Source of the DNA: an uncultured Alphaproteobacteria bacterium | GTDB taxonomy: Bacteria > Pseudomonadota > Alphaproteobacteria > ATCC43930 > CGMCC-115725 | Assembly: GCA_963721625.1 (NCBI GenBank) | Contig: CAVRKF010000012.1 | Coordinates: forward strand, 104,283-168,282 | Direction: 5' to 3' | DNA: 64,000 bases | Part shown: one piece after another, positions 19,574-39,876 of the stretch | Position numbering within the stretch: the stretch's first letter is position 1 | How the letters are laid out: every line of letters begins with the position of its first letter | Notes under the pieces: model-generated | What the model was told of the DNA's origin: nothing | Seen by the model: only the letters and a program-made list of their open reading frames with translations | Databases searched by the model: none | Translations under genes and position numbers: made by a program

Positions 19574-19613
19574 GTGCGCCCGGGTCGCTCCCGGGCACGA
19601 CGCGCTTGCGGCC

Positions 19614-21291: not shown

Positions 21292-21292
21292 C

Positions 21293-22501: not shown

Positions 22502-22911
22502 CACGCGCCGCGGCGGCGGCTTCACGCTGCTCGAATTGCTGATCGTGCTGGCGATCTTGAGCCTTGTCGTGGCGCTGGCCGTGCCGCTCTACGGCCGGCG
22601 CAGCGCGAGCCGCAACACTCGCCGGCGCCACCCAGGAGGTTCGCGCAGCGCTGGCGGCGGCGCGTTCCGCGGCGATCGCCGAGGACCGCGACATCGTCTT
22701 CAGCGGCGGCGCCGACGGCTACAGCGTCGACGGCCGGCGGCATCGATTCCCGCCGGCGGCGGCGCTGTCCATCGAAGTGCGCGGCGGCACGCGCATTTCC
22801 TTCTTCCCCTCGGGCGGCTCCTCGGGCGGAAGCGTGATCCTGCGCCGCGCCGCCGCGCGGCGCGAAATCGCGATCGAAGCGATCACCGGCCGTGCCGTCC
22901 TGCTCCGGTGA
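22485..22911 (+). pseudogene. gspH: minor pseudopilin, GspH-like, one frame break
   Basis: The ATG at 22485 lies in the frame of ORF 22455..22937. The prepilin leader and hydrophobic helix read RRGGGFTLLELLIVLAILSLVVALAVP. ORF 22564..22911 continues with ATQEVRAALAAARSAAIAEDRDIVF...ISFFPSGGSSGGSVIL, which is typical of GspH/FimT and not of GspG. The junction is near 22600. Confidence 0.7.
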
Positions 22912-23299
22912 CCGCCGCGCGGCGGGATTCTCCCTGATCGAGGTGCTGTTCGCCCTCGCCGTCGTCGGGATCGCGCTCGGCACGGCCGCCAGCGTGTTCG
23001 GCAATGGCATTCTCGGATATGCGGCGGCACGCGATGTCGATACCGCGCTGGCGCTGGCGCAGGGAAAGCTCGCCGCGGCCGGCGTCACCGCGCCGCTGCA
23101 GCCGGGCGTATCCGACGGCGTCTTCGCCGGCCGCTTCGCCTGGCGCCTTTCGGTCGCGCGCTTCGACGACAGCGCCGCTCCGCCGCCGCCGGCCCCGTTC
23201 GGGCTCTATCGCATCGACGCCAGCGTGGCGTGGCGCGAGGGGCCGCGCCGGCGCGAGATCGCGCTCTCGACGCTGCGGCTGGTCGCGGCGCCGCCATGA
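22892..23299 (+). CDS. gspI: minor pseudopilin GspI
   Basis: Intact ORF with a GTG start. The prepilin motif is AAGFSLIEVLFALAVVGIALG, the size is about 135 aa, and the gene overlaps the end of gspH. Confidence 0.75.
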   Translation: MPSCSGDRRAAGFSLIEVLFALAVVGIALGTAASVFGNGILGYAAARDVDTALALAQGKLAAAGVTAPLQPGVSDGVFAGRFAWRLSVARFDDSAAPPPPAPFGLYRIDASVAWREGPRRREIALSTLRLVAAPP

Positions 23300-23890
23300 G
23301 CGGCAGCGCGCGCCGGCACGGCTTCACGCTGGTCGAGGTGCTGATCGCGCTCGCCCTCACCGGCATCGTCGCGATGCTGCATGCTCGAGGGCATGCGCTT
23401 TGCCACGGCCGGGCTGGAGCGCGCCGCGGACCGCGCCGACCGGCTCGAAGCGCGCCGCAGCTTCGAGGCGCTGTTGCAGCGCGAGCTCGGCGTCACCTTC
23501 GTCGCACCGCTCCTGCCCAACGCTCCGGCGCTGGTCGGCGGCAGGCAGAGCCTGCGCTTCCTCACGCTCGCCGAGGACGGCGGCGCCGGGCTCTATCGCG
23601 TCGACGCTCGACGGTCGAGACGCGCGGCGGCGCGCCGGCGCTGGTCGAGACGCGGCGGCGGGTCGGCGGCTTGCGAGCGCTCGACACGGCACGCGCTATT
23701 GTGGTGCCGCGGCTCCGCCACCTGCGCATCGCCTATTTCGGCAGCACCACGCCCAACGACGCGCCGCAATGGCACGAACAGCTGGAACGGGCCGCTCTAC
23801 CCGCCGACGCTCGTTCGCATCGACCTCGACAGCGGCGACGGGCTCGCGCAGCCGCCGCTCGTCGTGCGGCTGTGGGCCGCGCCGGGCTGA
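23297..23890 (+). pseudogene. gspJ: minor pseudopilin GspJ, several frame breaks
   Basis: The ATG at 23297 gives MSGSARRHGFTLVEVLIALALTGIVAML (frame of ORF 23230..). ORF 23381..23890 supplies MLEGMRFATAGLERAADRADRLEARRSFEALLQREL... and the C-terminus ...YPPTLVRIDLDSGDGLAQPPLVVRLWAAPG. A middle stretch (ALVETRRRVGG...RIAYFGSTTPNDAPQWHEQ) is in a third frame. Confidence 0.6.
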
Positions 23891-23891
23891 G

Positions 23892-24798
23892 ATGCGCGAC
23901 CCGGCGAACCATAATGCGATCGAGCGCGAGCGCGGCTCGGTCACCATCCTCGTGCTGTGGGGCGTGGCGATCATGTTCGTGCTGCTGGCCGCGGCCGGCT
24001 TCACCACCCGCACCGAGATTCTCGTGGCGCGCAACGCGGTCGCGGCGATGCGCGTGCGCGAGGCCGCCGAAGGCGGCACGCAGCTCGGCCTGGCACGCCT
24101 GCTCGCGCGGCACGCTGCCGGCACCGCGATCTTCGACGGCAAGCCGCGAGACGTGGCGGGACGGAACCGTGTCCGTGGCGCCATCGCGATCGCGGACGAG
24201 GCCGGCAAGATCGACCTCAACCAGGCGCCGCTCGAACTGCTTGCGGGCCTGTTCGAGGCGGTGGGGCGGCCGGAAGCGGACGCGATGCTGCTCGCCTGCC
24301 GCATCGTCCAGCGCCGCGGCAGCCCCGCCCCGGACTGTCCGCAGCCGAACGACGCGCGATCAGGCGCCGTTTCAGCCGGCGCTCTTCACCGCGCCCGAGG
24401 AACTGGCCGGGCTGCCGGGGATGGACGACCGCCTCTATGACGCGGTCGCCGACAGCGTCACCGTCGCGACCGGCGCCGCGGCGATCGATCCCGCGGTCGC
24501 GCCGCGCACGGTGCTGCTCGCGCTGCCCGGCGCCACGCCGGACATGGTCGACGCCTATCTCGCGGCACGAAGTACGTGGCGCGCGATGGCGCCCGAGGAC
24601 AGCGGCTTCGAAACGCTGCCGGGCTTTCCCTATCTCATGGTGAGCCCGGATCGCGATTTCACCGTGAGCGCGATCGCGGCGGCGCCCGACGGCGCGCGCT
24701 TCCGCGCCGATCTGCAGATTCGCCTGACCGGCCTGGCGACCCACCCTTACCAGATCATGGCGTGGCGGACGCCGCCGCTGCGCGCAGGACGGCGCTAG
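23892..24798 (+). pseudogene. gspK: minor pseudopilin GspK, one frame break
   Basis: The ATG at 23892 (frame of ORF 23004..24440) gives ERGSVTILVLWGVAIMFVLLAAAGF...IADEAGKIDLNQAPLELLAGLFEA. The C-terminal half (FTAPEELAGLPGMDDRLYDAVADSVTV...) is in the frame of ORF 23230..24798. The junction is near 24360. Confidence 0.75.
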
Positions 24799-24875
24799 AC
24801 ATACCGGCCGCGAGCGATGCAAGCCGGCGCGGCATCTGATATGGTTCGCCGCGATCGCCGCCGAGAGCTTGCCCC

Positions 24876-25967
24876 ATGACCGTCGCCGCCGACGAGCCGA
24901 AACCGCGGGCGCGCGCCCGTTCGCTGGCGCGCGCGCTGCGGTGGTGGCTCGGCGAACTGCGCGGGCTTTGCGCGCGATGTGGCGCGGCAATTCGATCGGC
25001 GGCCGCAATGCGATCGTCATCGAGGTCGGCGAGCGCTATTGGATCGTGCGGCAGCGCCGGACGCCTGCTCGGGCAGATCGACCGCGCCGCCGCCGATGCG
25101 GCCGCAGCGCGGCGCAGCCTGCGGCGCCTTGCCGCAACCGGCGGCCGGTCTGGGGCGGTCGTGGTCGAGATCCCGCCAGAGCGCGTGCTGGCCAAGCGCA
25201 TCAGGCTGCCGGCGCATGGCGCAGCGCGAGATCGAGCGCGTCGCTGCATTTCGAGATCGCGCGCCACTTCCCCTTTCCGGCCGAGCGCGTCCATTTCCGC
25301 CATCGCGTCATCGGCCGCGCCACCGCGGCACGATCGAGGTCGAGATCGTCGCGGTGCCGCGCGAGATCGTCGCCGAGATCTGCGCCGAGCTCGGCCGGCG
25401 CCGGGTTGCGGCATCAGGGCCGTCGTCGCCGCGGGCGGCGCCGGCGCGCCGGCGCTTGCGCTGCCGGTCGCGGCGATCGGCGCCGGCGCTCGGCCTCGCG
25501 CGCGGCGCGCGCTGGCTCGTCGCGCTGCTGCGGTGCTCGCCGTCGCGGCGCTGGCCGCGCCGATCGTCCACGACCGGATGCGGCTCGCCGCAGTCGACGC
25601 GCGAGATCGCGGCGCTGCACAGCCGCGTGGTGGCCAGGCGTCGCCGCCGCGCACGCAGCAGCACCAGCCGCGAGCCGAGCGCGCCGCCGGGTCCGCTGCG
25701 CCTCAAGGCGGCGCGGCCGCCGCTCGTCGCCGTGCTCGACGCGCTGACCCAGGCGGTGCCGGACGGGTCGTGGCTCGCCTCCCTCGACGTGACCGGGCAC
25801 GAGATCGTCATGAGCGGGCTGTCGCCTTCGGCGGCGACGGTCGCGCTCGCGCTCGAGAACAGCCGCGCCTTCGCCAACGTCGTGTTCCGCTCGCCGATCC
25901 TGCGCGATCCCGCCACCGGGCTCGAGCATTTCGAGCTCGCGGCTGCCATCTCGAGCCGAAACCGTGA
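24876..25967 (+). pseudogene. gspL: type II secretion protein GspL-like, many frame breaks
   Basis: Position after gspK. Recognisable pieces are spread over ORFs 24876.., 24869.. and 24979..: LRWWLGELRGL; VVVEIPPERVLAKRIRLPA; FEIARHFPFPAERVHF; EVEIVAVPREIVAEICAEL; LDALTQAVPDGSWLASLDVTGHEIVMSGLSPSAATVALALENS. The assignment rests on order and general resemblance. Confidence 0.55.
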
Positions 25968-26491
25968 CCGCGGCGCGCGCGGCGGCGCTTCTCATCCTGG
26001 TGGCCTGCTCGCCGGGCTGTGGATCGGGCCGGTCGCGGCCTATCGCGGTTTCGTCGCTGACGGCGCCGATGCGGCTCGCCGCGGCCGAGCAGAAGCTTCT
26101 GCGCTATCGCGCGCTGCTTCGCGCGCCGCAGCCGGCGGCGGCGCCGATCGATGCGACAGGCAGCGCTCTTCCCCGCGGCTTCCGCCGCCCAGGCGGACGC
26201 GCTCCTGCAGCAGACGCTGAAGGCCGCGGCAGCGGCGGCGCAGGTCGAGATCGAGGGACTTCAGGTGCTGCAGCCCGCGTCGCTCGGAGGCGCGAGCCGG
26301 ATCGGCGTGCGGCTCAAGGGACGCGCCGACATCGCCGCGCTCGACCGTCTGCTCTATGCCATCGAGACATTCGCGGCCGCTGCTCTATCCCGACAATCTG
26401 CAGATCCAGTCGCGCGCGGGCGGCCGCAGCGCCGGCGCCGCTCGAATTCCAGGTCGACGTGTCGGGGTTCACGTCCGGGGCCGCGGCATGA
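25964..26491 (+). pseudogene. gspM: type II secretion protein GspM-like, several frame breaks
   Basis: The GTG at 25964 overlaps the gspL stop. A TM piece LLAGLWIGPVAAY is followed by ...ADALLQQTLKAAAAAAQVEIEGLQVLQPASLGGASRIGVRLKGRADIAALDRLLYAIE (ORF 26151.. frame) and the end ...APLEFQVDVSGFTSGAAA (ORF 25964.. frame). Confidence 0.5.
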
Positions 26492-26981
26492 CCGCCGCGA
26501 TGCGCGCGCCGCGCTTGCTCACTTTCGTCCTCGCGGCCGCCAATGTGGCGATGGCGGCGCTCGCGCTGTGGCCGTCGCTGCCGCAAGCGCGCGGGCGGCG
26601 TATTCCCGCGCCGTATCCGCGGCACAGCGACGAATGCCCGCCGCTGGCCGCCTGCCGCCTTTGCCGATTATGCCGCGACGGTCGAACGGCCGCTGTTCTC
26701 GCCGTCGCGCCGGCCGCCGCCGGGCGGCACGGCACACGCCCTGCGGCGGCGACGGCCGCTACCGCCTGCAAGGCCTCGTCATCGCCGGCACGACGCGGCA
26801 CGCGCTTATCGCCGAGATCGCGAGCGGCCGCAGCGTCGAACTCGGCGAAGGTCGAGGCGATCGAAGGCTGGATGGTGAAGCGGATCGACGCTGGATGGCG
26901 TGGTTCTCGCCTCGCCCGCCGGCGACAGCGACGCTCACCTTGGGCACCACGGGCGCGCTCCCGCCGACGGCCAAGCCGTGA
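26488..26981 (+). pseudogene. gspN: type II secretion protein N (GspN/GspC-like), several frame breaks
   Basis: The ATG at 26488 overlaps the gspM stop (ATGA). The TM reads MRAPRLLTFVLAAANVAMAALALWP. Pieces FADYAATVERPLFSPSRRPPP and YRLQGLVIAGTTRHALIAEIASGRSVEL resemble GspN. The stop is at 26979..26981. Confidence 0.4.
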
Positions 26982-26984
26982 CGC

Positions 26985-29900
26985 TCAGCGGCTGACGCGG
27001 CCCGTCTGCCGCAGCGGCGCGGGCACGGGCGGGCACGAAATTCTTCGGTGTCGACGCCGTCGGTCACGGTGTAGAGCTTGCCGTCCGGCCCGATATAGAA
27101 CTTCTGCATCTCGGCGAGCGGTGAAGGGGCGCGAGCCGATGCGACCGAAGACCGCGATCTGATGGCCGGTCTCGTCGACGCCGCGGTCGCGTTCGAGCCC
27201 GCGCGAAAGCGCCAGCGCCGGCGACGCGGTCGTGATACCAGGCGATCAGCGCGGGCTTCGGATCGGGCGAGAAGCCGTAGAAATTCGGGCTGCGCTGTCG
27301 GGCGAGGTGAGCTGGATCACCTTCAGCCCGTTGCGCCGTCGGCGACATAGGCGAAGAGCGAGGCGTTGGTCGCGCCGACGACCACGTCGCGGGCGTCGTC
27401 GAGCTTGCCGCCGGCGGTATATTGCATGTAGAGCTGCGGATGGTCCGGCCGCTCCACGTCGATGATCGCAAGCCCGTCGCTTGCCGTCGGCGACATAGGC
27501 GTAGGTGCGCGCCACGAACACGCGGTTGGCATGGGCGAGCGGCACGTGCGCGCCCTTGACCACGACGCGGCTGCAGCGGATCGGTGACGTCGACGACATC
27601 GAGCCCGTCCGCGTCGGCGACGAAGAGATAGCGGAACTGCACCGCCGTCGCCGCGCGCGCCGGCGATCGGGATCACCGCCATGACCTTGGGATGGAGCGG
27701 GTCGTCCATGTCGAGCTCGACCACGCCGGCATCGGCGCTGACATAGAAATGCGTTCCCGCGATCGTCAGGTGGCGCGCGCCCTTGAGGATGTCGCCCTCG
27801 TTCCAGGTCAGCGCGCGGGTGAGGAAGTTGTTGCGCGGCTCGCCGTCCTGCAGCGTGTCGACATTGGTGAGGATCAGGCCTTCCTCCGCATCCGTGATGA
27901 AGGCGTAGTTGTAGATCGGATGCATCGGCTGCTCTTCATTGTCCTCGCGCATCACCTTGGCGAAATCGACATCGGGCAGCAGGGTCTCGTCCTTGCCGGC
28001 GTTGCGCAGCGGGTTGATCGGCTGGTTGGTCGGCAGCGCGACGCAGGTGGCGTCCTTCGAGGCGATATGGGTGTCCTGGCCCAGCGGCGAGACCGGCGCG
28101 GTGATGATGCGCTCGGAGACGTCCTTGTTGGCGATGCTGGCGACGTCATAGACGCGCATGCCGCGCGTGCCTTCGGCGACGTAGAGATATTCGCCGCGCA
28201 GCTGGATGCACTGCGCGTCGTTCGAGTTGTGGCCATAGGCTTCCTTCAGCTCGCGGCCGTTGGCGAGATGCGCCTTGTAGTCAGTCGGGATAGGCGTATT
28301 TCTGCAGATAGCTGCCGATCACCGCCTGCGGCTCGTCCCATTCGGTGACGCGCACCGCCTCGATGTCGTGCGCCTCGCCGACCCAGGCATTGTAGCCGAC
28401 GAAATTGACGAAATTGGTGCCCAGCAGCAGGAGCTGCGCCATGATCGCGTTGTTGTCGTTGGCCGCGGAGACGTGGCAGTCGGTGCAGGTCTTGGTCTCG
28501 GTCGTGCGCTCGGTGTGCGGGTAATGCGGCGAGAAGGCCTGGCTCGAGAAGCCCGACGGAGGAGATCGGCGGCTGCTGCACGTAGATGTGGCTCGCGGTT
28601 GATGTTGGTCGATGACAGCACCAGCGCCGAGCGCGAGCGCGATCGGCGCGATGATGTTGCCCTTGAGCGTGCCGGCGATGCCGAGCTGGAACATGTCCTC
28701 GCGCGCGACCTGGGGATTGTAGGTCGCGAAGTTGCGGGTCTCGCCGCCTTCGTAGTGGTGGCGCGTCGGTCTTCCAGTTCGCCTCGATCGGCAGGTGGCA
28801 GCCGGCGCAGCTCGTGGTCCAGGACAGATGGCAGGTGAAGCACGCCATCTTGTCGTTGTGGGCGAGCTGCGGTTCGCGGCACGCCCGGTCCCCACTTCAT
28901 CGAGTGCGTCGTTCGACATGAGCTTGGCGCGCGCCGCCGCGGGATTGTATTTGGGGCTCGCCGGATCGACCGTGTCCTTGACCAGCGTCACCTCCCATTC
29001 GAGGTTGGGATAGACCGCCGAGCGCTGATAGAGCTTGCCGTCGCGCCATTCGAAGCGCTTGCGGCCGTCGGTGGTGCGCAGCAGCGACAGATCGGTGCCG
29101 CCGGGCGGCGCGGCGGGACCGCTGGTGCGCAGAGTTGGGATAGGCCGTCGACGGTGCCGTGGCAGTCGACGCAGGTGATCTCGATCGCGCCCTGCACCTC
29201 GCCATAGATATGGCCGCTGCCGTGCGCGTCCTGCGCGAAATGGCAATCGACGCATTGCATGCCGTAATCGACATGGATCGATCGAGATGCACCGCCTTCT
29301 TGAACTTCTCCGGATCGTCGTTCGCGACGATGTTGTTGGCGTCGTCGAGCAGGTTGCCCTTGCGGTCGCGCTTGAAGACGGCGCGGAAGTTCCAGCCATG
29401 GCCGTGATAGTCGGCGAACTGGGTGTCCTTGATCTGGGGATTGAGCGTCGCTCGACATCGGCGCTGAAATCGGGATCGGCCCAATTGCCGCGCGGCGCCG
29501 CGCCTTCGGGATTGCGGTCGTTGACGGCGCGGATTCTCGGCGGCGGTCGGATATTTCTGCTTCTCCGGCCACATCTGCGGCGCCGCCGTCTCGTAGTCCC
29601 ACATCGTGTAGCCGAGCATAGGTGTTCATGAACAGGTTCGGCTGATGCATGTGGCAGATCATGCATGGCTCGGTCGGGATCGCGTCGGTCATGACGTGGC
29701 GCAGCGGATGCGCCGCATTCGTCTTGGGGAATGGTCGGATCGACGCTGGCGCTGGTGCCGCCGTTGCCGAACTTGGCGTAGGGGCCGGACGCCTCGATGT
29801 CGCGGTCGTTGGCATAGACCACGTGGCACGCGGCGCAGCCGGAATTGCGATAATCGCCGGGATGGTCGTTGGTGCCGATGAACCAGGTGAAGGGATCGTT

Positions 29901-30822
29901 GAGCCGCGTCTTGGTGATGTTGAGGACCGGGATCGACGACGCGCAGGCCGGTGCCGGGCCCGCGATTGGACTGGCGGATGTCGGGCCGGCCCGGCTCCTC
30001 CAGACGCTCGAATCTCGCCGGTCGAATCGGGCAGGCCGATCTCGGGAAACTGCGTGCCGATGTTGCGGCCGCCGCGCTCGAACACGCGGAAGATGTCGCC
30101 GGGCGGCGTCACCTCCCACGCCGGCAGCGGGTAGAGCTGGGCGATGATGCCGTGATCGTGGGTCATCTCCGGCGTCGGCTTCACCGGCGCGACGAGGCTC
30201 GCGGGCTTGCCGTCGCGCGTATAGGCCTCGCCGAGGATCGCAGTGCTTGAACGGCACGATGCCGTTGTTGTAGGCGGCCGCCGCCCAGAAATGCGCCGCC
30301 GTCGCCATCAGGCTGCGCTCGGCCGCCTGGATGATGGCGAGATGGCAGGCGCCGCAGGCCTCGCGCGCGACGCGGTAATCGGACGGATTGACGAAGCGGA
30401 TGAACTCCGGCGCCTCGCGGTTGAGCAGCGTGTAGCTGTCGCTCGCGGCTTGGCGCTCGACGGCCAGTTCCACGCCTTGGGATAGCGCGGCTGGACATGC
30501 GCCTCGTCCTCGAGACGTGCGATATTCGTCGCTGCCCGGCTGCGATGATGCCCGCGCGCATCACGCCGGGATCGCCGCCATGGCAATCGGCGCAGCCGAG
30601 ATTGATGCCGACGCTGGTATGCATCGTCGGCGAGTCGGTCGCGGTGTGGCAGGTGATGCAGCCCGCGCTCTTGGCCGCGGCCGCGGCCGGCGTCTGCATC
30701 GCCGGCGCCGGCGGGAACGGCGTAGTGCGCGCGCGCTTCCGCTCGCGTCGGCACGGCACGCCGATCGCCGCCACGGCGAGGATCAGCGCGAAGGATGAAG
30801 CTATGATCGCTTTCGGCACCAT
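26985..30822 (-). pseudogene. multiheme (10 x CXXCH) cytochrome c fused to a C-terminal LVIVD-repeat beta-propeller; many frame breaks
   Basis: The ATG at 30822 gives MVPKAIIASSFALILAVAAIG (signal/anchor). Heme motifs seen in the ORF-track translations are CITCH and CADCH (30181..30822); CGACH, CAACH and CTDCH (28281..30473); CMICH and two CVDCH (28988..30184); CFTCH and CAGCH (28246..28848). The LVIVD-type repeats are GMRVYDVAS, GLILTNVDT, GVVELDMDDPLHP, GLDVVDVTDPLQP, GLAIIDVERPDHP and GLKVIQLTSPDS (ORFs 27323..28159, 27064..27642, 27246..27599). The propeller frame is open up to 28282 and overlaps the apparent cytochrome stop at 28281..28283. Confidence 0.7.
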
Positions 30823-30829
30823 CGGTCAC

Positions 30830-32694
30830 TCAATATGTCAGGACCACGTTGACGAGAACAGAATAGAGAAAGTTGCCGCCTGAAACGGGCGTCGAGTTCC
30901 CGGTCTGATAGAGCGCCGTCAAGCCCGGCGCCCGGCGCGAGCACCGCGCCCGACAGCCGCAGCACGATGTTCTGGGTGTCGAGCGGCCGGTAGGTGAAGG
31001 CGACCGACAGGTCATAGCCGATGCGTGTTGGGAATGTCGGCCTGGTGGCGCAGGAACTCGAGCGTCGCGGTGTTGACGAAGCGCAGATAGTTGAAGTTCG
31101 CCGAGATGCGCAGCTCCGGCAGGACGTCGAAATCCGCGCCCGACGCCGAGCAGCTCGAGCCCGGGATTGGTGAAGTTCGACTGGCCCTCGTCCTTCGAGG
31201 AGCGCAGATCGGCGAGGATGCCGTTGGGCTGGGTCAGCGCGACGCCGCCGCCGCCGATCAGCGGAATGCCCTGGCGGATCCAGTAGCTCGAATCGGCGCC
31301 GGCGAATTGCGGGTTCTCGAAGATCGCGTCGAAGCCCGTGGCGCGGCCGCCCTGCGGGTTGCCGTCGCCGCTGGCGTAGAGCGCGGAGGCGCGGACGCGG
31401 AACCAGTCGAAATCGATCGACGGCTCGGCCGCGAAGAAGAAGGCATCGATGAATTGCGGGGTCTTGGTCGGCGCCGCCGCTGAACTCGTTGTTGTCCTGA
31501 TGGCCGAGCGCCCAATAGGTCGACAGCGTCAGGTTGAGGCGGCCGAAATGCCCGTCGCCGTTATAGCCGAGATAATTGACGTCGTAGTTGTAGCCTTGGA
31601 AGTTCCCGACCGGCAGCGGCCGCACCAGGAAGCCGTTATTGTCGTAATAGATCTCGCCGCCCTCGTGGTTGGTGTTGCGGACATAGGTGATCTGCGAGGT
31701 GAAGCCGGGAACCGGCAGGTCCTGGCGATAGAGATTGGCGACGAAGACGTCGTCCTTGCGCAGCTGCTTGCCGATGTCGTTGAGGCCGCTGTTGGTGTCC
31801 TTCTCCAGCCGGCGGAAATAGGCGAGGTTGTATTGCCAGCGGTTGTTGTCGCGGTTGCCGAACAGGCGCACGCCGAGCTGGCTGTCCTGGAACAGGAAGC
31901 CGCGGAAATCGGTCGAGAAAGGCTGGATGCCGACGCGCACCGAATCGAAATCGTAGCGCTCGGACGACGTTGCGGAGGTGATAGTCGACGAACGCCTCCT
32001 GCAGCGCCGGGAACGAATCGTCGCGCGTCGGTCCCGTGCGCCGGATTGACGTTGACGACGCCCAGCTCCTCGACGTCGGTGTGGTTGAAGTTGAAGGCCG
32101 GCGTCAGGCTGAATTCGAGATCGGGCGGCTTGAAGGCCGTGTCGCCCTTGATGAGATCGAGAGTCTGAGGATGCCGGTCTGGCTCACCAGCGTGCGCCCA
32201 TATTGGCCGAAGACGCTGTTCGAGCCGGGACGGGCGCTTGCCTGCGGCGCCACCGGCGTCGGCACGCGCGCCGGCTCGTAGAGCGTGTCGCTGATGGCGC
32301 CGAAGCTGAAGAACCAGTCATTGCCGAAGATCGGCTTGTCGCCCTTCAAGCGTGTTGGTGTTGTAGGGATCGAACATGTTTTCGTTGCGCCCGAGCGCAT
32401 CGAGGATGCGCCAGCGGTCGGGCACGGGGATGAAATCGTCGCTGGTCGTAGGCTGCGGCGGCGGGACGGCGTTGGGATTGCCGAGCTCGGGCGGCGGCGC
32501 CACCGGCGGCGGCGGCTCGCCCGGGAATGCGCCGCTCCTCGTCCGGCAGCGCCGTCTGGTCGTCGCCAGTACCGGGCATCTGTGCCGTTGCCGGCGGTCC
32601 CGCGACATCGCCGCCAGCGCCAAGGCCAGCACGCCGCATCGCCCGATGCGCCGCGCCGCATGCGGAGCGGGCGGCGCTGCGCCCTCAATCGCAT
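30830..32694 (-). pseudogene. outer-membrane beta-barrel (porin-like) protein, several frame breaks
   Basis: Pieces are in ORFs 32318..32770 and 32104..33492 (signal-like GVLALALAAMS; DFIPVPDRWRILDALG; KGDKPIFGNDWFFSFGAISDTLYEP). ORF 30801..31940 adds FSTDFRGFLFQDSQLGVRLFGNRDNNRWQYNLAYFRRLEKD...NYLGYNGDGHFGRLNLTLSTYWALG. ORF 30830..31015 gives the end, ...GGNFLYSVLVNVVLTY (terminal aromatic residue). The stop lies 7 nt before the start of the cytochrome-propeller gene. Confidence 0.6.
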
Positions 32695-34700
32695 GGCGTC
32701 TGCTCGCGCGAGGTGAGGAACGGCGCCGGCGGGCAGGTGACGTAAAGCGGCGTGAACGGCTGCGAGCCAACCTGCGGCGTGAGCGAGACGCGCGCCGGGT
32801 TGTCGGCGCGGATGGCGGCGGGCGCGTTGGCGAGATTTCCCGCTCCCAGCGCGCCCACGCTCGCGTCGCCCTGGATGCCGAGATAGGCGATCAGCGCGTC
32901 CTGCTGCATGCCGTCGCCGGAAATGCCGAGCGCGCCGACCAGTTCGCCGTTGCGATAGATCGGGATAGCCGCCGGAGAAAATCTGCAGTCCGTTGGCGAT
33001 CTGCGGTCTTGGCTTCGGGGCAGGCATTGGCCGGGCCACGGCCCACGATTGCGCTGCCGCAGCCGGCCGCCGGTCGCCGCGCCACCGCCGAGAATGTTCA
33101 CGAGATCGGCCTTGATGAGATCGATCTGAAGCCCGGTCGAGAACACGCTCCACGAGCCGATCGGCAGGCTGAGCGGCCGTTCGCCTTCGCCGTCCTGGCC
33201 GTCCGGGAAAAAGGGCCGCGCGAGGTTGCCGATCGCGAGCTCGGAAAACGCCGTGCCGCTGGCTGAACAGGGTCGGACGCGTCGACGCTCTCCGCGTTGG
33301 CGTAATAGGAGAACTTGCCGGTCGGCGCTGCTCGGCGCGCGGCGGCGCGCCGACGGGCTGCCGATGATGCTCGATCGTGAAGGCGCTCTGTCGCGTCGCT
33401 GCGCGAGAAGAACACCGCCGAGCGCGCCTTCTGCAGCGACACGTCGGCGCCGAAGACCGGGGCATCGGGCGTGCGCGCCATCGCCAGCACATTGCCGTCG
33501 AGATCGACGACGCTGGCCGTCACCTGCGCATTCGAATTGGCTCGGGATGCGGATGCCGGCGCGGGCTGCCTGCGGCGACCGTGAGCGCGTTGCCGACCAG
33601 CCTGGTCGCCTCGGCCGCGGTGATGGCGTGGCCGTCGGCGGGCGCATGTGCCGGTCGTCGGCGGAAAGCGGTTCGCCGCCGTGCCGGTGCCGACAGTCAT
33701 AGGCGTTGAGATTCGGCCGGATAGGACGCCGCCCCGCCGGCAGCGACGCGTCGGGGAAAATGCCCGAGCCGCCGCGGTGCCATAGGTCATGCCCCGCCAA
33801 TGCCGCGGCGCCGGCGAAGAAGCCGGGCACCGGCGATGAGCGTCGGCGGCGTTATGGCGGCGACGCCCGGCTCGATGCACCGTCGATGGTCCGAGGTAAT
33901 CGAGATTGGCGCCGTTGACCGCGACGTTTGGCGCCTGAATTTGCGCCGGCGCCGCGAAGCCGACCGCCCCGGCGAGCGCGATCCCCTCGTCGTTGCTGTC
34001 GCCGAGGTGGTGCTGGGATTGAGCGAATAGGTCGCGGTGCTCATCACGCCGATGCCGCCGACCAGCACGCCGTTGATATAGAGCGGCAGGCCGCCGGGAT
34101 CGGCCGCCAGCCCGAGCGGCGCATGCATGCGGCCCCGCCGCGGCGCCCCGCCCGTCAGGCCGCGGCTGAAGTCGGAGCACGGCAACTGGCTGAACTGCAC
34201 GCCGAAGAGCGGGCCCGACCGGGTAGCCGTTGACGCCGAGCGGGAAATGCTGCTGGATGATCTGGTTGGCGGTGCGGGTCGAAAAGGCATTGCCGCCCGA
34301 TGAGAGATAGGCGCCGGTGATCGCCTTGGAGATCGCCGCGAGGGTGGTCGGGACCGCCGTATCCTCGAGCCCGGTCGTCGACGCCGGCGTTCGAGGTGAT
34401 CGGTGGCCATCGGCTCGGCGCGCCGGTCATGACTGCGCCACGGCGAGCACGTTGCCGACGCGGTCGACGACCGCGATGATCGCCGGCGTCCCCCTGACGG
34501 TCGCCTCGTTGGCCGCCTGGTTGAGGATCTGTTGCACCTGCGTCGGCGCTGAGCGCCGTCGTGGTCTGGTCGGGAACCGTATAGTTCGCTGCCGGAGAGC
34601 CCGCCGCCGCCGCCGCCGCAATCGGACGGCGCCGCGCACAGCACCGACAGCACCGCCATCGCCGCCTTGAACGCAGGATGCGACAGCAGCGGCCAGCGCC
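32685..34700 (-). pseudogene. secreted protein with two GlcG/HbpS-like (DUF336, heme-binding-type) domains, many frame breaks
   Basis: Copy 1: QVQQILNQAANEATVRGTPAIIAVVDRVGNVLAVAQS (ORF 34427..34639) plus GGLPLYINGVLVGGIGV (ORF 33787..35220). Copy 2: VTASVVDLDGNVLAMARTPDAPVFGADVSLQKARSAVFFS (ORF 33098..34180) plus IPIYRNGELVGALGISGDGMQQDALIAYLG (ORF 32685..33830). The N-terminus is hydrophobic (AMAVLSVLCAAPSDC). The 5' end is approximate. Confidence 0.6.
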
Positions 34701-34718
34701 GGCGGAGTGCCGTGGCCG

Positions 34719-36459
34719 CTATCGGTCCCGCCGCATCATTTGCGCGGCGCTCGCGGTCTTCATCGGGCCCGAACTCCTGGCGGTGGAAGAGATGGCAGGA
34801 GGTGCAGGTCGAGCGCGTCTTGAGCACGGCGCGCTCGGCGCCGTGGCAGGCGACGCAGGTCGCGATGCCCGGCAGCAGCACGTCGCTGCTCTTTTCGGAA
34901 TGCCGCGCGTCGTGGCAATGCGGCGCATGGCGAGCGCCGCATGCTTGGCGTGATCGAATTGCGCCTCGGGCAGGAAGCGGGCGCGCAGGAAGACGGGCGC
35001 CACGGTGAAATTGCCGCCGCTGCGGTCGGTCACGTGGCAATAGGCGCAGCCGCGCTTGGCGTCGAAGATGATGCGCCAGCGCGTCGTTGGCGCGCTGCGC
35101 CGCCCAGGCGAGGGCGTCGCGGCGCTCCGGTCTCGGTCGGCGGCCGGCAGCGGCGTGCCCACCGGGCGCCGCACGACCGCCGGCGCATCGGGATCGTGCA
35201 CGCCGCCCTGCGAGCGCCATGCGGGCATAGAAATCCTCGACCGCGTGTCTTCACGCGCGCCAGCGTCGCCATGCGGCACTTCCCGCCACGGCAGGTCGGC
35301 ATCGAATTTGAGGTCGTGGCAGGAATGGCACTGGCCCTCGAAGGTGATCAGGCTGGAATCCCTGCCCGCTCGGCTCGGGCACATGGCAGTCGGCGCAGGC
35401 CATGACCTTGTGCCCCGCGGGCGTGAGGAAACCGGTCGCGATGAGATGCGCCGCATGCGAGAAGACGAGATTGGAACGGTCCACCGGTTTCGGCGGTGCG
35501 CGCCGAGCAGCATGCGCGCGAAGCGCGGTTTCGCGGCATCGGCGACCACCGTCGCGCGGAACTGCGGGATGGCCGGCGGGAAATCCCGCCACGTCCCGGA
35601 CCCCGGCCTTGGGCGCGGTCGCGGCGAGCGTGGCATGGCAATCGACGCACAGCGCATCCGCCTTGATCACCATGCCGCTGAGGCCGCGATGCTCCTCGTG
35701 GCAATCGGCGCAGCGCAGTCGCGGCGAAATCCTGGCGCGAGGTCGCCGACATCCGCGCCGGCGGCGACGTGACTGCCGATGCCGGCATGGCAGCCGAGAC
35801 AGGCCGTGTCGGATACGCTGGCGAAGGCGCCGCGGTGGCAGGTCGCGCAATTCTGCGCGAAGAAGCGGTGCGGGTTGGAGATGGCGCCGGCGTTCCACGA
35901 CAGGTTGACGAAGTTGACGCGGCACCGAGCGGCGCGGACCGGCTTGCCCAAGGTCGCGACCTGGCCGAAGGAATAAACCGCGACCGGCAGCGCGCAAGCC
36001 CGAGGATGGCGACCAGCGAGAAACAGCACCCACGACCAGCGCCGCCGGCTCCATCCCGCCTGCGCCAGCCCGATGCGGCTTTCGCCGACGAGCCGCTCGA
36101 AGCGCATCGCCCAGCGGCTGCACGAGCTCGACCGTGAGCGCCGCATCGGCGCCCTGGGGCGGCGCGATGACGATGACCTCATAGGGACCGATATGGATCC
36201 GGTCGCCCGGACCGCCACGGTCGCGCTCGTCGGTGCTCTCGCCGTTGACGCGCAGCGGCTCGTCGCCGGCCTGCTGCACGAACAGCCCGCCCTCGCGCTC
36301 GGCCAGCACCGCCGCGTGCAGGCCGACGCGGATGTCGGGAAGCTGCACCTCGTTGTCGCTGCCGCGGCCGAAGCGGAGACTCTCCGCCGTCACGGTCTGC
36401 GACTTGCGCATGATCGCGTCGGCGCCGCGCCGGGTGAGGAAGGTGACCTCAACCTGCAT
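34719..36459 (-). pseudogene. FHA domain - transmembrane - multiheme (9 x CXXCH) cytochrome c3-family protein, several frame breaks
   Basis: The ATG at 36459 gives an FHA-like N-terminus (SLRFGRGSDNEVQLPDIRVGLHAAVL...LRVNGES...IHIGPYEVIV, ORF 35251..36459). A TM follows (WSWVLFLA...). The heme motifs are CATCH and CLGCH (ORF 35667..36218); CADCH, CVDCH and CADCH (35251..36459); CHSCH and CAYCH (34719..35657); CVACH and CTSCH (33787..35220 frame). The 3' end is uncertain to within tens of nt. Confidence 0.7.
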
Positions 36460-36523
36460 CGGCGCCGCTCCGTGTGGAAATGCTTGACGTTCACGGGAGG
36501 CTCACGGTGCGGACGGACGCCGC

Positions 36524-37346
36524 TCACCAATAGAAGAAGACCGAGAAGACATGGGCGAGCGAGCGCCGCCAAGCAGCGCGAAGGACAGCGGCACGTGGAA
36601 ATAGAGCCAGAGATCCATCATCGCCTTGTAGCTGACGTCGCGCCGGGCGCGGGTCAGAAGCTGCGCCTTCTCGTCGAGCAGCACGCGAACCTGCCGGTAG
36701 GCGGCCTGCGTCCTCGGGCGGGCTGCGGGCGGCGATCGCATCGACGCCGCTGAGCGCCGCCGCCGTCGTGCAATGGGGATAGCGCGCGCTCACCTGCTGC
36801 CACACCGAGCCGCCGATCTCGGTATGCTCGATCGCCCGCGTCACCAGCCGCGCCGTCGGCGTCGTCGAGCGCCATGGCGCCGGCGCGCAGCTCGTCGTTG
36901 AGCGCCGGCGATCCGGCCGAGCATCTGCGGCATCGTCGTGCTCGCCGCGGTTGCGGGTCATGAGCCGCGGGTAATGGACATAGCAATAGATGCCGAAGGC
37001 GCCGCTCGCGATGACGAGGCACATCAGCGCATAGGCGAGCGGTGTGGATGTTCCAGCCGAAATGAAAGCCGGTGTGCGAGCGTGGCGACGACGAGGAGCG
37101 CCAGGCCGAGATAGACATGCGCCGACAGCCACGCCTCGAGCTTGCCCTGATTGCTGCGATAGCAGCGCTTGCGGTAGCCGAACCACATCAGCCACAGGAT
37201 CAGCAGCGCGCCCGCCGTGCCGAGGACGTAGCCGACCCAGGTACCGCCATAGCGGCTCGTTGAGCGGCCGCTCGCCGAAATAGAGCACGATGGAAACGAC
37301 GCACCGCCGCCGCCGCGATCTTGAGATAGAAAAAGCGGCGGTACAT
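36524..37346 (-). pseudogene. integral membrane protein of unknown function (about 4 hydrophobic segments, conserved His residues), several frame breaks
   Basis: The ATG at 37346 gives MYRRFFYLKIAAAAV. Hydrophobic pieces appear in three frames: WVGYVLGTAGALLILWLMWF; AWLSAHVYLGLALLVVATL.HTGFHFGWNIHT; AYALMCLVIASGAFGIYCYVHYPRL; MDLWLYFHVPLSFALL; and the end ...AHVFSVFFYW (ORF 36524..37288). Confidence 0.45.
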
Positions 37347-37425
37347 CAGGAACGGCGTATGCCGGTCCTCCTCGTGCGCCAGCGGCGCGCGGCGGCTCCT
37401 CGGCGCGCGGCCGGGTGCGCGCGCA

Positions 37426-39876
37426 TTACCGCGCGCTCCGGATGACGGAGATGAACTGCTCGGGATTGACGCGGATCGCGGCGCCCGTGGGGCAGGCCCG
37501 GACGCAGGCCGGGCCGCCGGCGATGCCCTTGCACATGTCGCACTTGACCGCGTGCTTGCTCCCGGTCCGCCGGGCCAGGCCGTCGGGCGTCTTGTCCTCG
37601 CCCGGACCGTTGCCCGCGCCCGAACAGGAGCCAGCTCAGGAGCCCCGGCTTCGCCGCCGGCACCGCCGCCATCTGGATCACGCCATAGGGGCAGTTGCGC
37701 TCGCAATTGCCGCAGCCGATGCATTTGTCGTCGATGAACACCTCGCCGTTGGGCGCGCGGTGGATGGCGTCGGCGGGGCAGTCCTTCATGCAATGGGGGT
37801 GCTCGCAATGCCGGCACGAGGTCGGCACGTGGAGCGTGTCGTAGGTCGGGCCGGCCTCGCGGTTGAGGCGGCTCACGCCGTGATGGGTCTCGGCGCAGGC
37901 CTTCTCGCAATTGTCGCAGCGCACGCACAGCGCTTCGTCGATGAGCAGCACATCGGTCGCCTCGCCAAGACCCTGGCGGATGAGGAACTCGATGATCCCG
38001 CCCTCGGTCGCGCCATGCTCCATCCGGCGCTGTTCCATCATGCGCTGCTCGAGCCGCTCCTCGACCTCGCGGCGCAGCTCCGGGACGCGGTCGAGCAGCG
38101 CGCGGAAGGCGGCGCTGTCGATCTTGATCGCCTCGGTGGCGACCGCGGCCTTGACCGTGGCGGAGCGCTTGGACTTGGTCAGCATCGCCATTTCGCCGAC
38201 ATAGTTGCCGGCCGGGAGATAGGCCAGCACGATGTCCTTGCCGGCGATGCGGCGCGACACCGTCACCGAGCCCGTGCGCACGAGATAGACGGGATCGTCC
38301 TCGGCCCCCTCCGCGATCAGCGTGTCGTTGGGCTTGAACTCGACGACCTGCGGCGGTGCGCAGCACGTCGGCGAGCAGCGCGTCCTCGACTCCCGGCGCG
38401 AGATACGTCTTGATCTGGCGCACGACGGCGGCGCCATCGACGATCCGCTTGATCTCGGGCACCGAGCGCACCAGGCGGACCATGATGTTGCGGTCGACCT
38501 CGAGCAGCAGCGAGGGCGCGGTGGCGACCGTCGTCGCGGTGCGCCGGCGCCCGGAGATGAGGCCCATCTCGCCGAAGAACTGGCCCGGGCCGAGCCGCAC
38601 CAGGGTGGCCGGATTGGCGGGGTCGATCTCGATGCCGACCTCGCCGTCGAGCACCGAATAGAGCGAGTTGGTGTAGTCGTTGCGCTGGAAGATCACGTCG
38701 CCCGGGTTGGGCTGATGGATCTCGGAATGGATGCAGGAATTCGCGGATCTGCAGCGGCGTGAGCGCGGCGTAGAGCGGCAGCCGCTCGCGCACGGCGGTG
38801 ACGAGTTCCGTCACCGTCATGCGCACCCCGGCGCTGGTCGAGCTTGTCCTGGATCAGCGGCTCGTCAGCCGGCGGGATGCGGTTGCCGAGGATGTATTCG
38901 ACGACCTCATAGCCCTGGTTGAGGCAGTGCTTGATCAGCGGATACCCGGCCAGCGCGCCGATGATGTAGAGCCCCGGAATTTCCGACTCATAGGTTTCGG
39001 ACACTTGCGGGAAGGCGGTCGGGCTGTCGCTGGGAAAATGGATGCCGCAGGATCTCGACGAATTTGCGCGGCGGCAACGCACCGATGCGGGCGATGATGC
39101 GGTCGCATTTGACGCGCGCCTCGCCGTCCGCGGTATCGAGGACGAGAAAGCCGGGCTCGACGCGCTTGGGCTCGGAATTGGAGAAGGCCGTGATCGCGCC
39201 TTTGTTGATCGCCCCTTGCATCAGTGCCGCGTTCGCGGGCTTGGCATAAGGGAAGTCGGCGACCCGGTTGATGATCGAGACGTTGTTGTTGAGCGAGAGC
39301 GCCAGCGCGTTCTCGATCCCGGCATCGCCGGTGCCGATGACGATGATCTCCTCGCCTTTGTACTCGTCGGGATCATCGAGCTGATACTGGACGAAGGGAA
39401 GCTCGGCGCCGGGGATGGTGAGCTTGCGCAGATTGCCCTGAACCCCGATCGACAGCACGACATGTTCGGCCGTGAGCGTCTCGCCGCCGGCGAGGCCGAT
39501 CTCGAAGGCGCCGCGCTGGCCCTTGATCGCGGTGACCTCGGCATTGAGGCGGAGATTGACCTTGGCGCCCCCGATGCCCTGCATCCAGGTGTCGATCACC
39601 TCCTCGCGCGAGCTCTCCTTGAAGCCGAGTTCGCTGCGCAATGGCAGGAATTCCGGCGTCGCCATGACATGCTTGCGCTTCTGGTACTTGAAGATGGTGT
39701 CGTTGACGTGGGCGGTGCGCTCGATCAGGATGTGCTTCTGACCGTCCTCGCGCCGCGCGCGCCGCAGCGCTCAGCCCTGCCGGCCCCGATCCGACAATGG
39801 CGATCGCATAATCAGCGGCCACCGCATCCCCCACATCAAAGCGAACGCGCCTCACTCTCCCCGCGCGTTCTTGCAC
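37426..39876 (-). pseudogene. multidomain oxidoreductase: FAD/NAD(P)-binding (thioredoxin-reductase-like) + two cyclic-nucleotide-binding domains + 4Fe-4S ferredoxin domain; several frame breaks
   Basis: FAD motif YAIAIVGSGPAGLSAAARAA (ORF 39373..39876). Second Rossmann motif EEIIVIGTGDAGIENALAL (38988..39665), and PGLYIIGALAGYP (38693..39082). cNMP motifs GQFFGEMGLISGRRRTATTVA (37200..38696) and GNYVGEMAMLTKSKRSATVKA (37346..38437). Fe-S motifs CVRCDNCEKAC, CRHCEHPHCMKDCP and CIGCGNCERNCP, plus CDMCKG...ACVRACP read from the last frame. The stop is at 37426..37428. The start may be an internal GTG near 39834. Confidence 0.75.

Follow-up and report, generated by a model that had tools for sequence, protein, structure and literature searches.

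A conserved six-gene cluster with broken reading frames, predicted to encode a regulated electron-transfer chain from the cytoplasm to the outer membrane

A 64,000-nucleotide stretch of DNA from an uncultured Alphaproteobacteria bacterium (assembly GCA_963721625.1, contig CAVRKF010000012.1, positions 104,283 to 168,282; the whole stretch is referred to as the window) contains six minus-strand genes, A to F, whose reading frames are broken many times, which raises the question of whether these genes are intact in the organism and, if they are, what their products do together. The frame breaks are most likely sequence errors, with genes A–F intact in the organism. Their products are best read as a regulated electron-transfer chain leading from the cytoplasm to the periplasm and outer membrane, a reading predicted from sequence that we place at a probability of roughly 0.55. 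A–F appears to be a multiheme cytochrome and outer-membrane barrel gene cluster whose inner half was noticed earlier and whose outer half is undescribed.

Frame breaks and gene content of the A–F locus

The G+C content of the window is ~68%, and raw open reading frame (ORF) lists were dominated by spurious frames. Plain ORF lists were dropped in favour of a frame plot of G+C content at third codon positions (GC3) and codon-usage Viterbi paths with frame switches, followed by alignment-guided repair. A single unbroken minus-strand coding signal was found from ~39.8 kb to 26.98 kb with ~50 frame hops, stop codons closing each frame that the signal leaves, and the concatenated 'mosaic' proteins read along the frame-switch path were sensible sequence with the domains that had been named in a model-generated first-pass annotation of the window. 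The best homologue of C is an intact 565 amino acid (aa) protein of a Stellaceae metagenome-assembled genome (MAG), and the contig that encodes it (locus L001) carries intact copies of all six genes (A, 796 aa; B, 296 aa; C, 565 aa; D, 666 aa; E, 616 aa; F, 1270 aa). Gene limits in the window were mapped by orthology to this locus, giving the following features:

37426 to 39822, minus strand: gene A (796 aa in the orthologue), cytoplasmic protein with an FAD/NAD(P) Pyr_redox domain, two cNMP_binding domains and a four-cluster [4Fe-4S] ferredoxin module
36524 to 37426, minus strand: gene B (296 aa), inner-membrane protein with five predicted transmembrane (TM) helices
34736 to 36459, minus strand: gene C (565 aa), divergent FHA domain, one TM helix and a predicted periplasmic decaheme c-type cytochrome
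32685 to 34739, minus strand: gene D (666 aa), predicted exported protein with repeated HbpS/GlcG/PduO-C (DUF336) domains
30830 to 32694, minus strand: gene E (616 aa), predicted outer-membrane beta-barrel
26985 to 30822, minus strand: gene F (1270 aa), predicted Sec-exported decaheme c-type cytochrome with a C-terminal LVIVD beta-propeller

The six minus-strand genes of the first-pass annotation are therefore present, and nearly all of the domains listed for them were found by Pfam search. Its extent to 26985 was borne out, and the start that it gave for A, 39876, is an upstream GTG located 54 nt from the orthology-based start at 39822. Close spacing of the genes was also confirmed in the intact orthologue L001, with intergenic distances of 61 nt (B–C) and 7 nt (E–F) and overlaps of 4 nt (C/D) and 10 nt (D/E); the gap of about 80 nt reported between A and B was not, as the two genes abut with a 1 nt overlap in the orthologue and the gap arose from insertions in the 5′ end of B. 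The raw counts of nine CXXCH heme motifs in C and ten in F were correct for the sequence as deposited. After repair, however, C has ten, the tenth (CAHCH, near 34.92 kb) having been hidden by two insertions, so that the total of nineteen becomes twenty.

The first-pass annotation had left it open whether the frame breaks reflect a dead locus or an error-prone assembly, and comparison with the intact locus favours the second. The window shares 89.2% DNA identity with L001, relative to which it has 101 single-base insertions and 11 single-base deletions (binomial p≈2e-19), and 75 of the 101 inserted bases are unlike both flanking bases. When the six genes were projected on the orthologue frame there were zero in-frame stops and the stop codons were at conserved positions, amino-acid identity to the orthologues was 82–96%, and the ratio of non-synonymous to synonymous substitution (dN/dS) was 0.09–0.32, compared with 0.10–0.27 in three intact flanking genes. 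Gene A illustrates the effect of repair, as removal of its six single-base insertions gave a protein with 95.9% amino-acid identity to the L001 orthologue and a dN/dS of 0.09.

True pseudogenisation of A–F in this organism, with the frame breaks being real mutations, is exceedingly unlikely on these data. The ~110 frame-changing indels inside the six genes, and a density of 7–19 per kb at 26–40 kb versus ~1 per kb in the adjacent patatin, ACT and SIR2 genes (40–43 kb), are what a decaying locus might show, but the substitution divergence is similar in the indel-poor and indel-rich blocks rather than raised in the latter. Natural bacterial frameshifts are biased to deletions and concentrated in homopolymers. 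The indels here are the opposite, with a 9:1 ratio of insertions over deletions and a depletion in homopolymers, and indel-rich blocks are also found in unrelated genes of the window. Sequence error was preferred over decay because ~100 independent indels without a single nonsense mutation are not credible as decay, and because of the insertion excess, the conserved stops and the dN/dS values matching those of intact neighbours. Neither homopolymer errors (454, Ion Torrent or Nanopore-type) nor natural slippage was accepted as the source of the frame breaks, since for 75 of the 101 insertions neither neighbouring base is identical to the inserted one.

Other frame-switch blocks lie at 15.4–26.9, 47.7–51.2 and 60.4–63.6 kb and include type II secretion system (T2SS) and housekeeping-type genes. 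Blocks of clean 2–3 kb genes at 2.5-14.8, 41.3-45.8 and 51.7-60.3 kb alternate with the frame-switch-rich blocks, and nearly every error in the one block that was aligned is a single-base insertion located outside homopolymers. The record of the window looks like a patchwork of accurate and insertion-error-rich (for example polished and unpolished) sequence, or is otherwise corrupted, and gene calls in its error blocks need homology-guided repair.

Conservation of the gene order and its variants

Relatives of C were sought in one genome per species, and the best 80 loci were examined. C has relatives in at least 424 of these species-representative genomes, and all of the best 80 come from MAGs. 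Their hosts are mostly Stellaceae and other Alphaproteobacteria, the remainder including Gallionella, Burkholderiales, Methylococcaceae, other Gammaproteobacteria, Myxococcota, Binatia, Thermoanaerobaculia, other Acidobacteriota, Bryobacterales, Planctomycetota and Verrucomicrobiae. A tblastn search with the six proteins showed A-B-C-D-E-F colinear on one strand in ~29 distinct loci, and by strict ORF criteria the six genes are in order on the same strand in 22 loci, with spans of 12.6–15.1 kb, distributed over Pseudomonadota, Myxococcota and Acidobacteriota. The flanking genes of the six-gene loci are unrelated between lineages. Because the same six families recur with order and strand unchanged across phyla with unrelated flanks, A–F is a conserved operon and more than a chance arrangement, and the gene order first noted in this window alone is thus kept in several phyla. 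With the relatives of C in these genomes and those of E running to thousands, the cluster represents an uncharacterised redox system abundant in soil, peat and groundwater bacteria. All-versus-all ORF clustering of the loci was polluted by shadow ORFs, and only Pfam-verified clusters were used.

E and F are adjacent in every locus that has both, including most of the rearranged variants, with L070 as the sole exception. F is the most conserved member of the cluster, retaining 53–57% identity where C retains only 27–30%. Variation elsewhere in the cluster includes one Methylococcaceae locus without D, and Bryobacterales- and Planctomycetota-type loci where the A, B and C proteins are shorter and the E-F pair is rearranged. 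Between C and D, an ORF of 105–167 aa without a Pfam match is present in three loci (L003 11878-12195, L004 11698-12195 and L010 11710-12213) and is missing from the window and L001, and Myxococcota loci have 0.5–1 kb of unexplained sequence at this position.

Gallionella loci have A-B-C alone, without D, E or F, and for this reason A-B-C is regarded as a self-standing module for electron exchange between cytoplasm and periplasm, with other periplasmic partners in Gallionellaceae. This trio has been noticed before. Adjacent genes encoding proteins of 796, 308 and 544 aa are listed for Gallionella capsiferriformans ES-2, with similar trios in two other Gallionellaceae (PMC5566968, Suppl. Table 6), and are described as a redox protein, a 5-TM protein with two HX13H motifs and a 9-heme cytochrome (PMC5566968). 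In He et al. 2017 these clusters fall among those 'without a porin', for which a part in extracellular electron transfer was considered less likely (PMC5566968). A preprint on Ferrigenium straubiae reports a novel FHA-containing nonaheme cytochrome together with a 5-TM protein and a [4Fe-4S] protein, encoded between nirK and an SHP-like gene (10.64898/2026.01.22.701106). Neither PMC5566968 nor 10.64898/2026.01.22.701106 assigns a function to the trio.

The Gallionellaceae cluster and the A-B-C half of the locus described here are the same in their three genes, in gene order and in protein size (796/296/565 aa here versus 796/308/544 aa in ES-2). Two Gallionella MAG loci (L030 and L064) have full-length tblastn matches to A, B and C with 46–47%, 36–37% and 31–32% identity, respectively, and the A protein of L030 has a Pfam architecture identical to that of A here. 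The Gallionellaceae loci differ in having SHP-like/DUF1924 and NirK-like flanks in place of D, E and F. In L030 (5747-13081) a DUF1924 protein is encoded upstream of A-B-C, and a 344-aa two-cupredoxin NirK-like protein and a monoheme cytochrome c are encoded downstream, a neighbourhood that agrees with the nirK/SHP setting reported for Ferrigenium.

A search of the accessible literature library on LVIVD, GlcG/HbpS/DUF336, multiheme, porin-cytochrome and Stellaceae topics found no description of D, E, F or the six-gene form. The term 'undescribed' used in the first-pass annotation therefore stands for the D-E-F half and the six-gene form, and does not stand for the A-B-C trio (PMC5566968; 10.64898/2026.01.22.701106). 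Its statement that the cluster matches no characterised pathway held in Pfam and NCBIfam searches, as no NCBIfam family reached its cut-off for any A–F protein. The DmsE/MtrA family TIGR03508 scored 15.9 bits against C (cut-off 192.2) and had no match in F, and ExtM scored 59 against a cut-off of 800. These matches, like those to AegA and HmcB, cover their families only in part and lie far under threshold, and none was taken as an assignment.

Predicted properties of proteins A to F

The predicted products span the cytoplasm, inner membrane, periplasm and outer membrane, as judged from domain, TM and signal-peptide predictions and in agreement with the first-pass annotation. A Rossmann GxGxxG motif stands at the very start of protein A, which lacks a signal peptide. 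Its Pfam matches are Pyr_redox_2/3, two cNMP_binding domains and a four-cluster Fer4 module with four Cys-cluster motifs of the NrfC/HybA/DmsB ferredoxin type, and include Fer4_11 (PF13247), encoded immediately upstream of B. The ferredoxin module had only partial, below-threshold NCBIfam matches, to HmcB (31 bits, cut-off 420) and DsrO (43 bits, cut-off 200). From these domains, A would take electrons from NAD(P)H via FAD and hand them along the four [4Fe-4S] clusters, and in a flavin-less variant, A′, electrons would enter from another donor. In one 1110-aa protein of the representative library (P0410), the whole of A (Pyr_redox, two cNMP domains and Fer4) is fused to the B membrane domain, which is either a natural A–B Rosetta-stone fusion or a gene-calling artefact, given the 1 nt overlap of A and B.

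Protein B belongs to a family of ~2,700 clusters at 50% identity, none of them annotated; the representative-library search for B listed strong matches only. In an alignment of 52 sequences, H102, H116, H274, H288, S139, G140, G143 and W270 are invariant and W98 is at least 90% conserved, giving the signature W98-x3-H102-x13-H116, S139-G140-x-x-G143 and W270-x3-H274-x13-H288. In the AlphaFold2 (AF2) model (predicted local distance difference test score (pLDDT) of 78), B is built of five TM helices, of which TM4 and TM5 are separated by a helical insert; the WX3HX13H motifs lie on TM3 and TM5 and the SGXXG motif on TM4. The same arrangement, five TM helices with WX3HX13H on TM3 and TM5 and SGXXG on TM4, was described by He et al. 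2017 for the conserved inner-membrane protein of the putative PCC3 and PCC4 clusters, which they related to two-heme-b ferric-reductase and cytochrome b folds (PMC5566968). PCC3 and PCC4 membrane proteins share no overall homology with each other (PMC5566968). B is predicted to be an inner-membrane protein binding two b-type hemes stacked across the membrane, and by the positive-inside rule the TM4–TM5 insert and H102/H274 would lie on the cytoplasmic side, with H116/H288 on the periplasmic side. No redox motif was found in the corresponding TM protein by the Ferrigenium authors (10.64898/2026.01.22.701106). No Pfam family was above cut-off for B, the only sub-threshold matches being Ni_hydr_CYTB (E 1.4e-3) and DUF4405, and Ferric_reduct (PF01794) was not matched even at E ≤ 1. 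A tie of the B fold to the cytochrome b561/FRD family was sought and not obtained, as the B model had no significant Foldseek neighbour.

Beyond the full membrane-protein signature and a size of ~300 aa, the locus shares with PCC3 and PCC4 the presence of porin and multiheme genes in one cluster, and with PCC4 subgroup II a pfam13247 Fe-S gene (A here) upstream of the membrane-protein gene. It differs in its cytochromes, since PCC4 has three periplasmic cytochromes with 4, 5 and 10 hemes and PCC3 has wires with medians of 21 and 34 hemes, whereas two decahemes (C with FHA and F with LVIVD) and a distant five-heme protein, G, are found here. FHA, cNMP, HbpS-like and LVIVD components are reported for neither PCC3 nor PCC4, both of which are uncharacterised.

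Protein C has an FHA-like N-terminal domain (residues ~26–103), a TM helix (~140–160) with RRR on its cytoplasmic side, and cytochrome c3/c7 domains. All ten CXXCH motifs are present in 54 of 59 orthologues, and there are ~10 further conserved His residues besides those of the motifs. The C profile matches the FHA domains of Rv1747, GarA and OdhI in the PDB (E≈3e-4), and in a 45-sequence alignment G31-R32 is invariant and N72-G73 is at least 90% conserved, the canonical motif having been mapped by eye. C is predicted to be an inner-membrane-anchored decaheme with a divergent FHA domain on the cytoplasmic side.

Protein D matches the Pfam HbpS-like family (DUF336) with 70 bits (cut-off 25) in three stretches, and its sequence relatives in the PDB are 2a2l, 5cx7 (PduO-C), 6bws (EfgA) and 4nkp. 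It has a lipoprotein-type (lipobox) signal peptide in most lineages. Members of the DUF336/HbpS/GlcG family are described as heme-binding (PMC4923194, PMC3754957), and D may be an accessory protein, acting as a heme or redox chaperone or as a bridge.

Protein E consists of a signal peptide, a Pro-rich linker, a conserved pre-barrel segment (PVPDRWRI...DPYNTNTLKGDKP) and the barrel, and ends in ...VVLTY. It has no Pfam family and no sequence relative in the PDB, and 7,994 of 8,000 scored candidates were significant members of its family, the named ones among the matches listed all being 'hypothetical protein'. The AF2 model of an E orthologue has 18 long strands, with pLDDT of ~75–92 in most barrel blocks. 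In a Foldseek search the best match of the model was AlgE (E 5e-14, target-normalised TM-score 0.57–0.63), followed by Occ/OprD porins, chitoporin and LamB/ScrY, and MtrB was not among the top 50. E shares only ~10–12% sequence identity with AlgE and the 18-strand channels (OprD/Occ, LamB/ScrY), has no Alginate_exp Pfam match even at E ≤ 1 and no alginate or sugar-uptake genes nearby, and carries a long conserved N-terminal extension that AlgE/OprD/LamB-type channels do not have. In orthologue P0121 the segment PVPDRWRILDALGR.EN.FDPYNTNTLKGDKPIFG occupies residues ~88-122 (window ~32.43-32.33 kb), just before the first barrel strand; it is almost invariant in 54 sequences, yet modelled with a pLDDT <50. 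This pre-barrel segment may be a plug or a partner-binding motif.

Protein F has CXXCH motifs at residues 57, 79, 157, 329, 386, 522, 549, 659, 670 and 776 of the orthologue, matches Pfam LVIVD (72 bits) and Cytochrome_C554/c3, and has no sequence relative in the PDB. Its signal peptide is of the plain SPase-I type, without a lipobox, in all lineages. Among 34 orthologues across phyla, ~30% of positions are at least 90% conserved, including blocks outside the heme motifs. The non-heme motifs TQF.D.HGHGW (~465-475), NDNNA..AQL (785-795) and DEPQAVIGS (823-833; L001 F numbering) are strictly conserved, and hint at a catalytic or metal-binding site. With conservation extending over its whole length, F resembles an enzyme, or a subunit fitted tightly into a complex, more than it does a generic heme wire.

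The adjacency of E and F invites comparison with MtrCAB, MtoAB and PioAB, which likewise have a decaheme gene beside an outer-membrane barrel gene and components predicted in each envelope layer. A true MtrCAB/Pcc-type conduit, the kind of system proposed in the first-pass annotation, in which part of F or C threads E, the LVIVD propeller is at the surface and the acceptors are insoluble Fe(III)/Mn(IV), humics or electrodes, would account for the barrel gene lying directly upstream of the decaheme gene and adjacent to it in all but one locus, for the twenty heme motifs, for membership of B in the PCC3/PCC4 membrane-protein class with the pfam13247 gene upstream, and for LVIVD repeats, which are typical of surface proteins. 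F also has ~78 residues per heme, which is nearer to surface decahemes than to MtrA, and a T2SS gene set converges on F in alphaproteobacterial loci. Such a conduit is nevertheless unlikely. No homology to MtrA/DmsE, MtrB/PioB or MtrC was found and no MtrB/PioB-type family was matched in Pfam, MtrB has 26 strands compared with the 18 of the AlgE-like E model, and by simple barrel geometry an 18-strand lumen would be too narrow for an MtrA-like multiheme domain. F has a plain signal peptide with no lipobox, its very high sequence conservation is unlike that of known surface cytochromes, and the T2SS adjacency is confined to one clade. The idea of a barrel large enough to host a cytochrome, on which the first-pass annotation had made its reading depend, was therefore not upheld by the model.

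Since the 18-strand barrel would be too narrow and the conservation of F suggests an enzyme, we favour E as an access or export channel for F, or as its docking partner, over E as a cytochrome sheath. Alternatively, a thin segment may be threaded through the barrel, D may take part in the outer-membrane step, or the T2SS may display F at the surface.

Direction of electron flow, regulation and neighbouring genes

In the preferred reading, a regulated chain from the cytoplasm to the outer membrane, electrons from A would cross the inner membrane on the two stacked b hemes of B, a step proposed from the invariant motifs and the predicted topology. C would relay them into the periplasm via ten bis-His c-type hemes. 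F would be the end point, most likely a terminal oxidoreductase whose substrate arrives through or at E, unless F itself is displayed at the surface. Flux would be gated by cyclic-nucleotide binding to A and by a module of FHA domain, Ser/Thr kinase and PP2C phosphatase, as suggested by domain shuffling and gene neighbourhoods. Outward flow would be thermodynamically easier, starting from −320 mV and aided by the membrane potential. By analogy with NOX, the heavy regulation can be explained because an outward chain would be an electrogenic 'valve' that does not conserve energy.

The input side differs from that of MtrCAB, where a CymA/NapC-type quinol dehydrogenase is used and not, as predicted here, a cytoplasmic flavo-Fe-S protein and a di-heme b protein. 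A closer parallel is provided by NOX/FRE enzymes, in which a cytoplasmic nicotinamide/flavin dehydrogenase feeds two bis-His b hemes (heme b being predicted here) via HX13H pairs. NOX/FRE enzymes are tightly regulated by phosphorylation or ligand binding. The differences are that the parts are separate polypeptides here (bar P0410), that the flavin domain is Pyr_redox and not an FNR-like fold, that a four-cluster Fe-S relay is inserted, that B has five TM helices versus six, and that electrons would pass to a c-type multiheme chain here and not to O2 or Fe(III). A NOX/FRE-type parallel was noted for HX13H membrane proteins by He et al. (PMC5566968). The Hmc and Tmc complexes offer a likeness of general plan only, as their subunit families differ and they have no outer-membrane component. 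In these complexes of sulfate reducers, the redox pools of cytoplasm and periplasm are linked by an Fe-S protein in the cytoplasm, a cytochrome b in the membrane and a multiheme cytochrome c in the periplasm.

The parallel with NOX allows a more specific and more tentative proposal, which we hold to be possible though doubtful: a quinone-independent, NOX-like export route in which electrons from NAD(P)H or ferredoxin pass through the flavo-Fe-S protein, a member of a new di-heme-b membrane-protein family, the decaheme relay and a terminal decaheme/beta-propeller oxidoreductase, also of a new family, with its own outer-membrane channel, switched by cNMP and Ser/Thr phosphorylation, widespread in uncultured Stellaceae, Acidobacteriota, Myxococcota and further soil and sediment bacteria and forming an unrecognised route for the reduction of extracellular or periplasmic oxidants. 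If true, export by A-B-C would bypass the quinone pool and be a bacterial counterpart of NOX/FRE wired to multiheme chains, with relevance to the turnover of iron, humic substances and N-oxides. The orphan FHA-nonaheme cytochrome of Gallionellaceae would also be tied to a six- or seven-gene system, with a likely di-heme-b protein as its partner, which provides a testable framework.

Flow in the opposite direction was considered, with F or a partner oxidising Fe(II), Mn(II) or a reduced S or N compound and electrons passing inward from C to B and on to quinone or A. The A-B-C trio is present in Fe(II)-oxidising Gallionellaceae and is linked to quinone reduction in the preprint (10.64898/2026.01.22.701106), HX13H membrane proteins were proposed by He et al. 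to exchange electrons with quinone (PMC5566968), and relatives are found in Gallionella and Methylococcaceae MAGs. The Ferrigenium trio, however, was expressed under all conditions tested and not specifically during Fe(II) oxidation (10.64898/2026.01.22.701106). Inward electrons would also oppose the membrane potential, with NAD(P)+ reduction from donors at the level of Fe(II) strongly uphill; the NAD(P)H/FAD domain and ferredoxin wire of A are more typical of electron input; and most hosts are soil Stellaceae, Acidobacteriota and Myxococcota, which are not known lithotrophs. Taken together, these points make electron uptake distinctly unlikely.

Several observations weigh against the outward, regulated chain that we prefer. 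The authors who described the trio in Gallionellaceae proposed inward flow, tentatively from Fe(II) oxidases to quinone (10.64898/2026.01.22.701106). The A′ protein of Bryobacterales-type loci is without a flavin domain, so NAD(P)H cannot be a universal donor. B has no relative in the PDB by sequence or by fold (Foldseek best E 0.38). The N-terminal domain of C scored 16.8 bits against Pfam FHA (cut-off 20.7) and 21.9 against Yop-YscD_cpl (cut-off 33.2), and the canonical Ser and His phospho-Thr-contact positions, mapped by eye in the 45-sequence alignment, are not conserved. The E model has a mean pLDDT of 67.8, and its unresolved 440–508 segment could hide two more strands. In one alphaproteobacterial MAG (L010 1-21701, on a 1 Mb contig), C-D-E-F directly follows kdpA/kdpB and neither A nor B is present within 10 kb, and the A-B input module can thus be unlinked from C-D-E-F.

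Evidence on regulation came from the variant loci. In a Bryobacteraceae locus (L061; 6671-19880) the order is A′, B, C, PP2C phosphatase, Ser/Thr kinase, c554-like cytochrome, E, F. A′ has two cNMP domains, Fer4 and a strong FHA domain (71 bits), and C is without FHA, the domain being on A′ instead. The kinase, of the Hanks type (Pkinase, 157 bits), has a TM helix at its C-terminus in addition to a zinc ribbon. The interval from C to E in this type of variant yielded no homologue of D, and in L061 there was only a weak, partial D-like match downstream of F. Similar arrangements are present in L057, L073, L078, L080 and L081, and PP2C and kinase homologues follow C in several other Bryobacterales-type loci. 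Among alphaproteobacterial loci, a kinase and a PP2C are encoded upstream of the cluster in L051 and a kinase upstream of it in L054. Because the FHA domain migrates between C and A in association with a kinase and a phosphatase, the comparison supports phospho-Thr-dependent control of the predicted chain. The first-pass annotation had proposed regulation by phospho-Thr and cyclic-nucleotide signalling; this gained comparative support from the FHA domain of A′ beside kinase and PP2C genes, whereas the FHA domain of C itself, on which the proposal was based, is divergent and below cut-off.

Cyclic-nucleotide genes also recur near the cluster. Directly upstream of A in the window (43068-39969, minus strand) are genes for a patatin/cNMP-binding protein, an ACT-domain protein and a SIR2 deacetylase, the same trio is placed likewise in L001 (86–93% amino-acid identity), and in L003 a guanylate-cyclase-domain protein is encoded upstream of the cluster instead. 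In extracellular or periplasmic electron transfer, post-translational control of the flux by cNMP and phospho-Thr has hardly been explored.

The abundance of signalling domains (two cNMP, FHA, Pkinase and PP2C) could also be expected of a sensor complex that reports periplasmic or extracellular redox state, or iron/heme stress, to the cytoplasm and is not a bulk electron pathway. The family of D includes the redox-stress sensor component HbpS and the formaldehyde sensor EfgA, and a sigma-70-family gene lies near the trio in Gallionella. We consider a sensor very unlikely, as 20 c-type hemes, two predicted b-type hemes, four Fe-S clusters and a dedicated outer-membrane channel far exceed the equipment of known sensors, the layout is that of a continuous wire from cytoplasm to outer membrane, and Pfam searches found no DNA-binding or other output domain in the cluster.

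Two further features of the window lie beyond the 3′ end of F:

15258 to 16634, plus strand: gene G, c554-like cytochrome with four CXXCH motifs and one CX4CH motif, two frame switches; Pfam Cytochrome_C554
19570 to 26975, plus strand: type II secretion genes (GspE, GspF, pseudopilins, K, L and M; mosaic translation), convergent on F and frame-switch-ridden

G is located ~10 kb from F in the window. In 24 non-Stellaceae loci its counterparts immediately neighbour the cluster, either following F or preceding A, and those of L034 and L042 share 47% identity with G. G may be a detached seventh component of the A–F system.

No secretin gene was seen among the T2SS genes at 19570-26975. Beyond the window, T2SS genes were confirmed only in L001 and L002, with the T2SS M and L genes of L001 at the same position (Pfam). 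The T2SS was not accepted as an integral part of the A–F system, the adjacency being restricted to alphaproteobacterial loci, and a link between the two is only suggested. A small ORF directly after F, which precedes the T2SS genes in L001, recurs in nine loci, all of them alphaproteobacterial.

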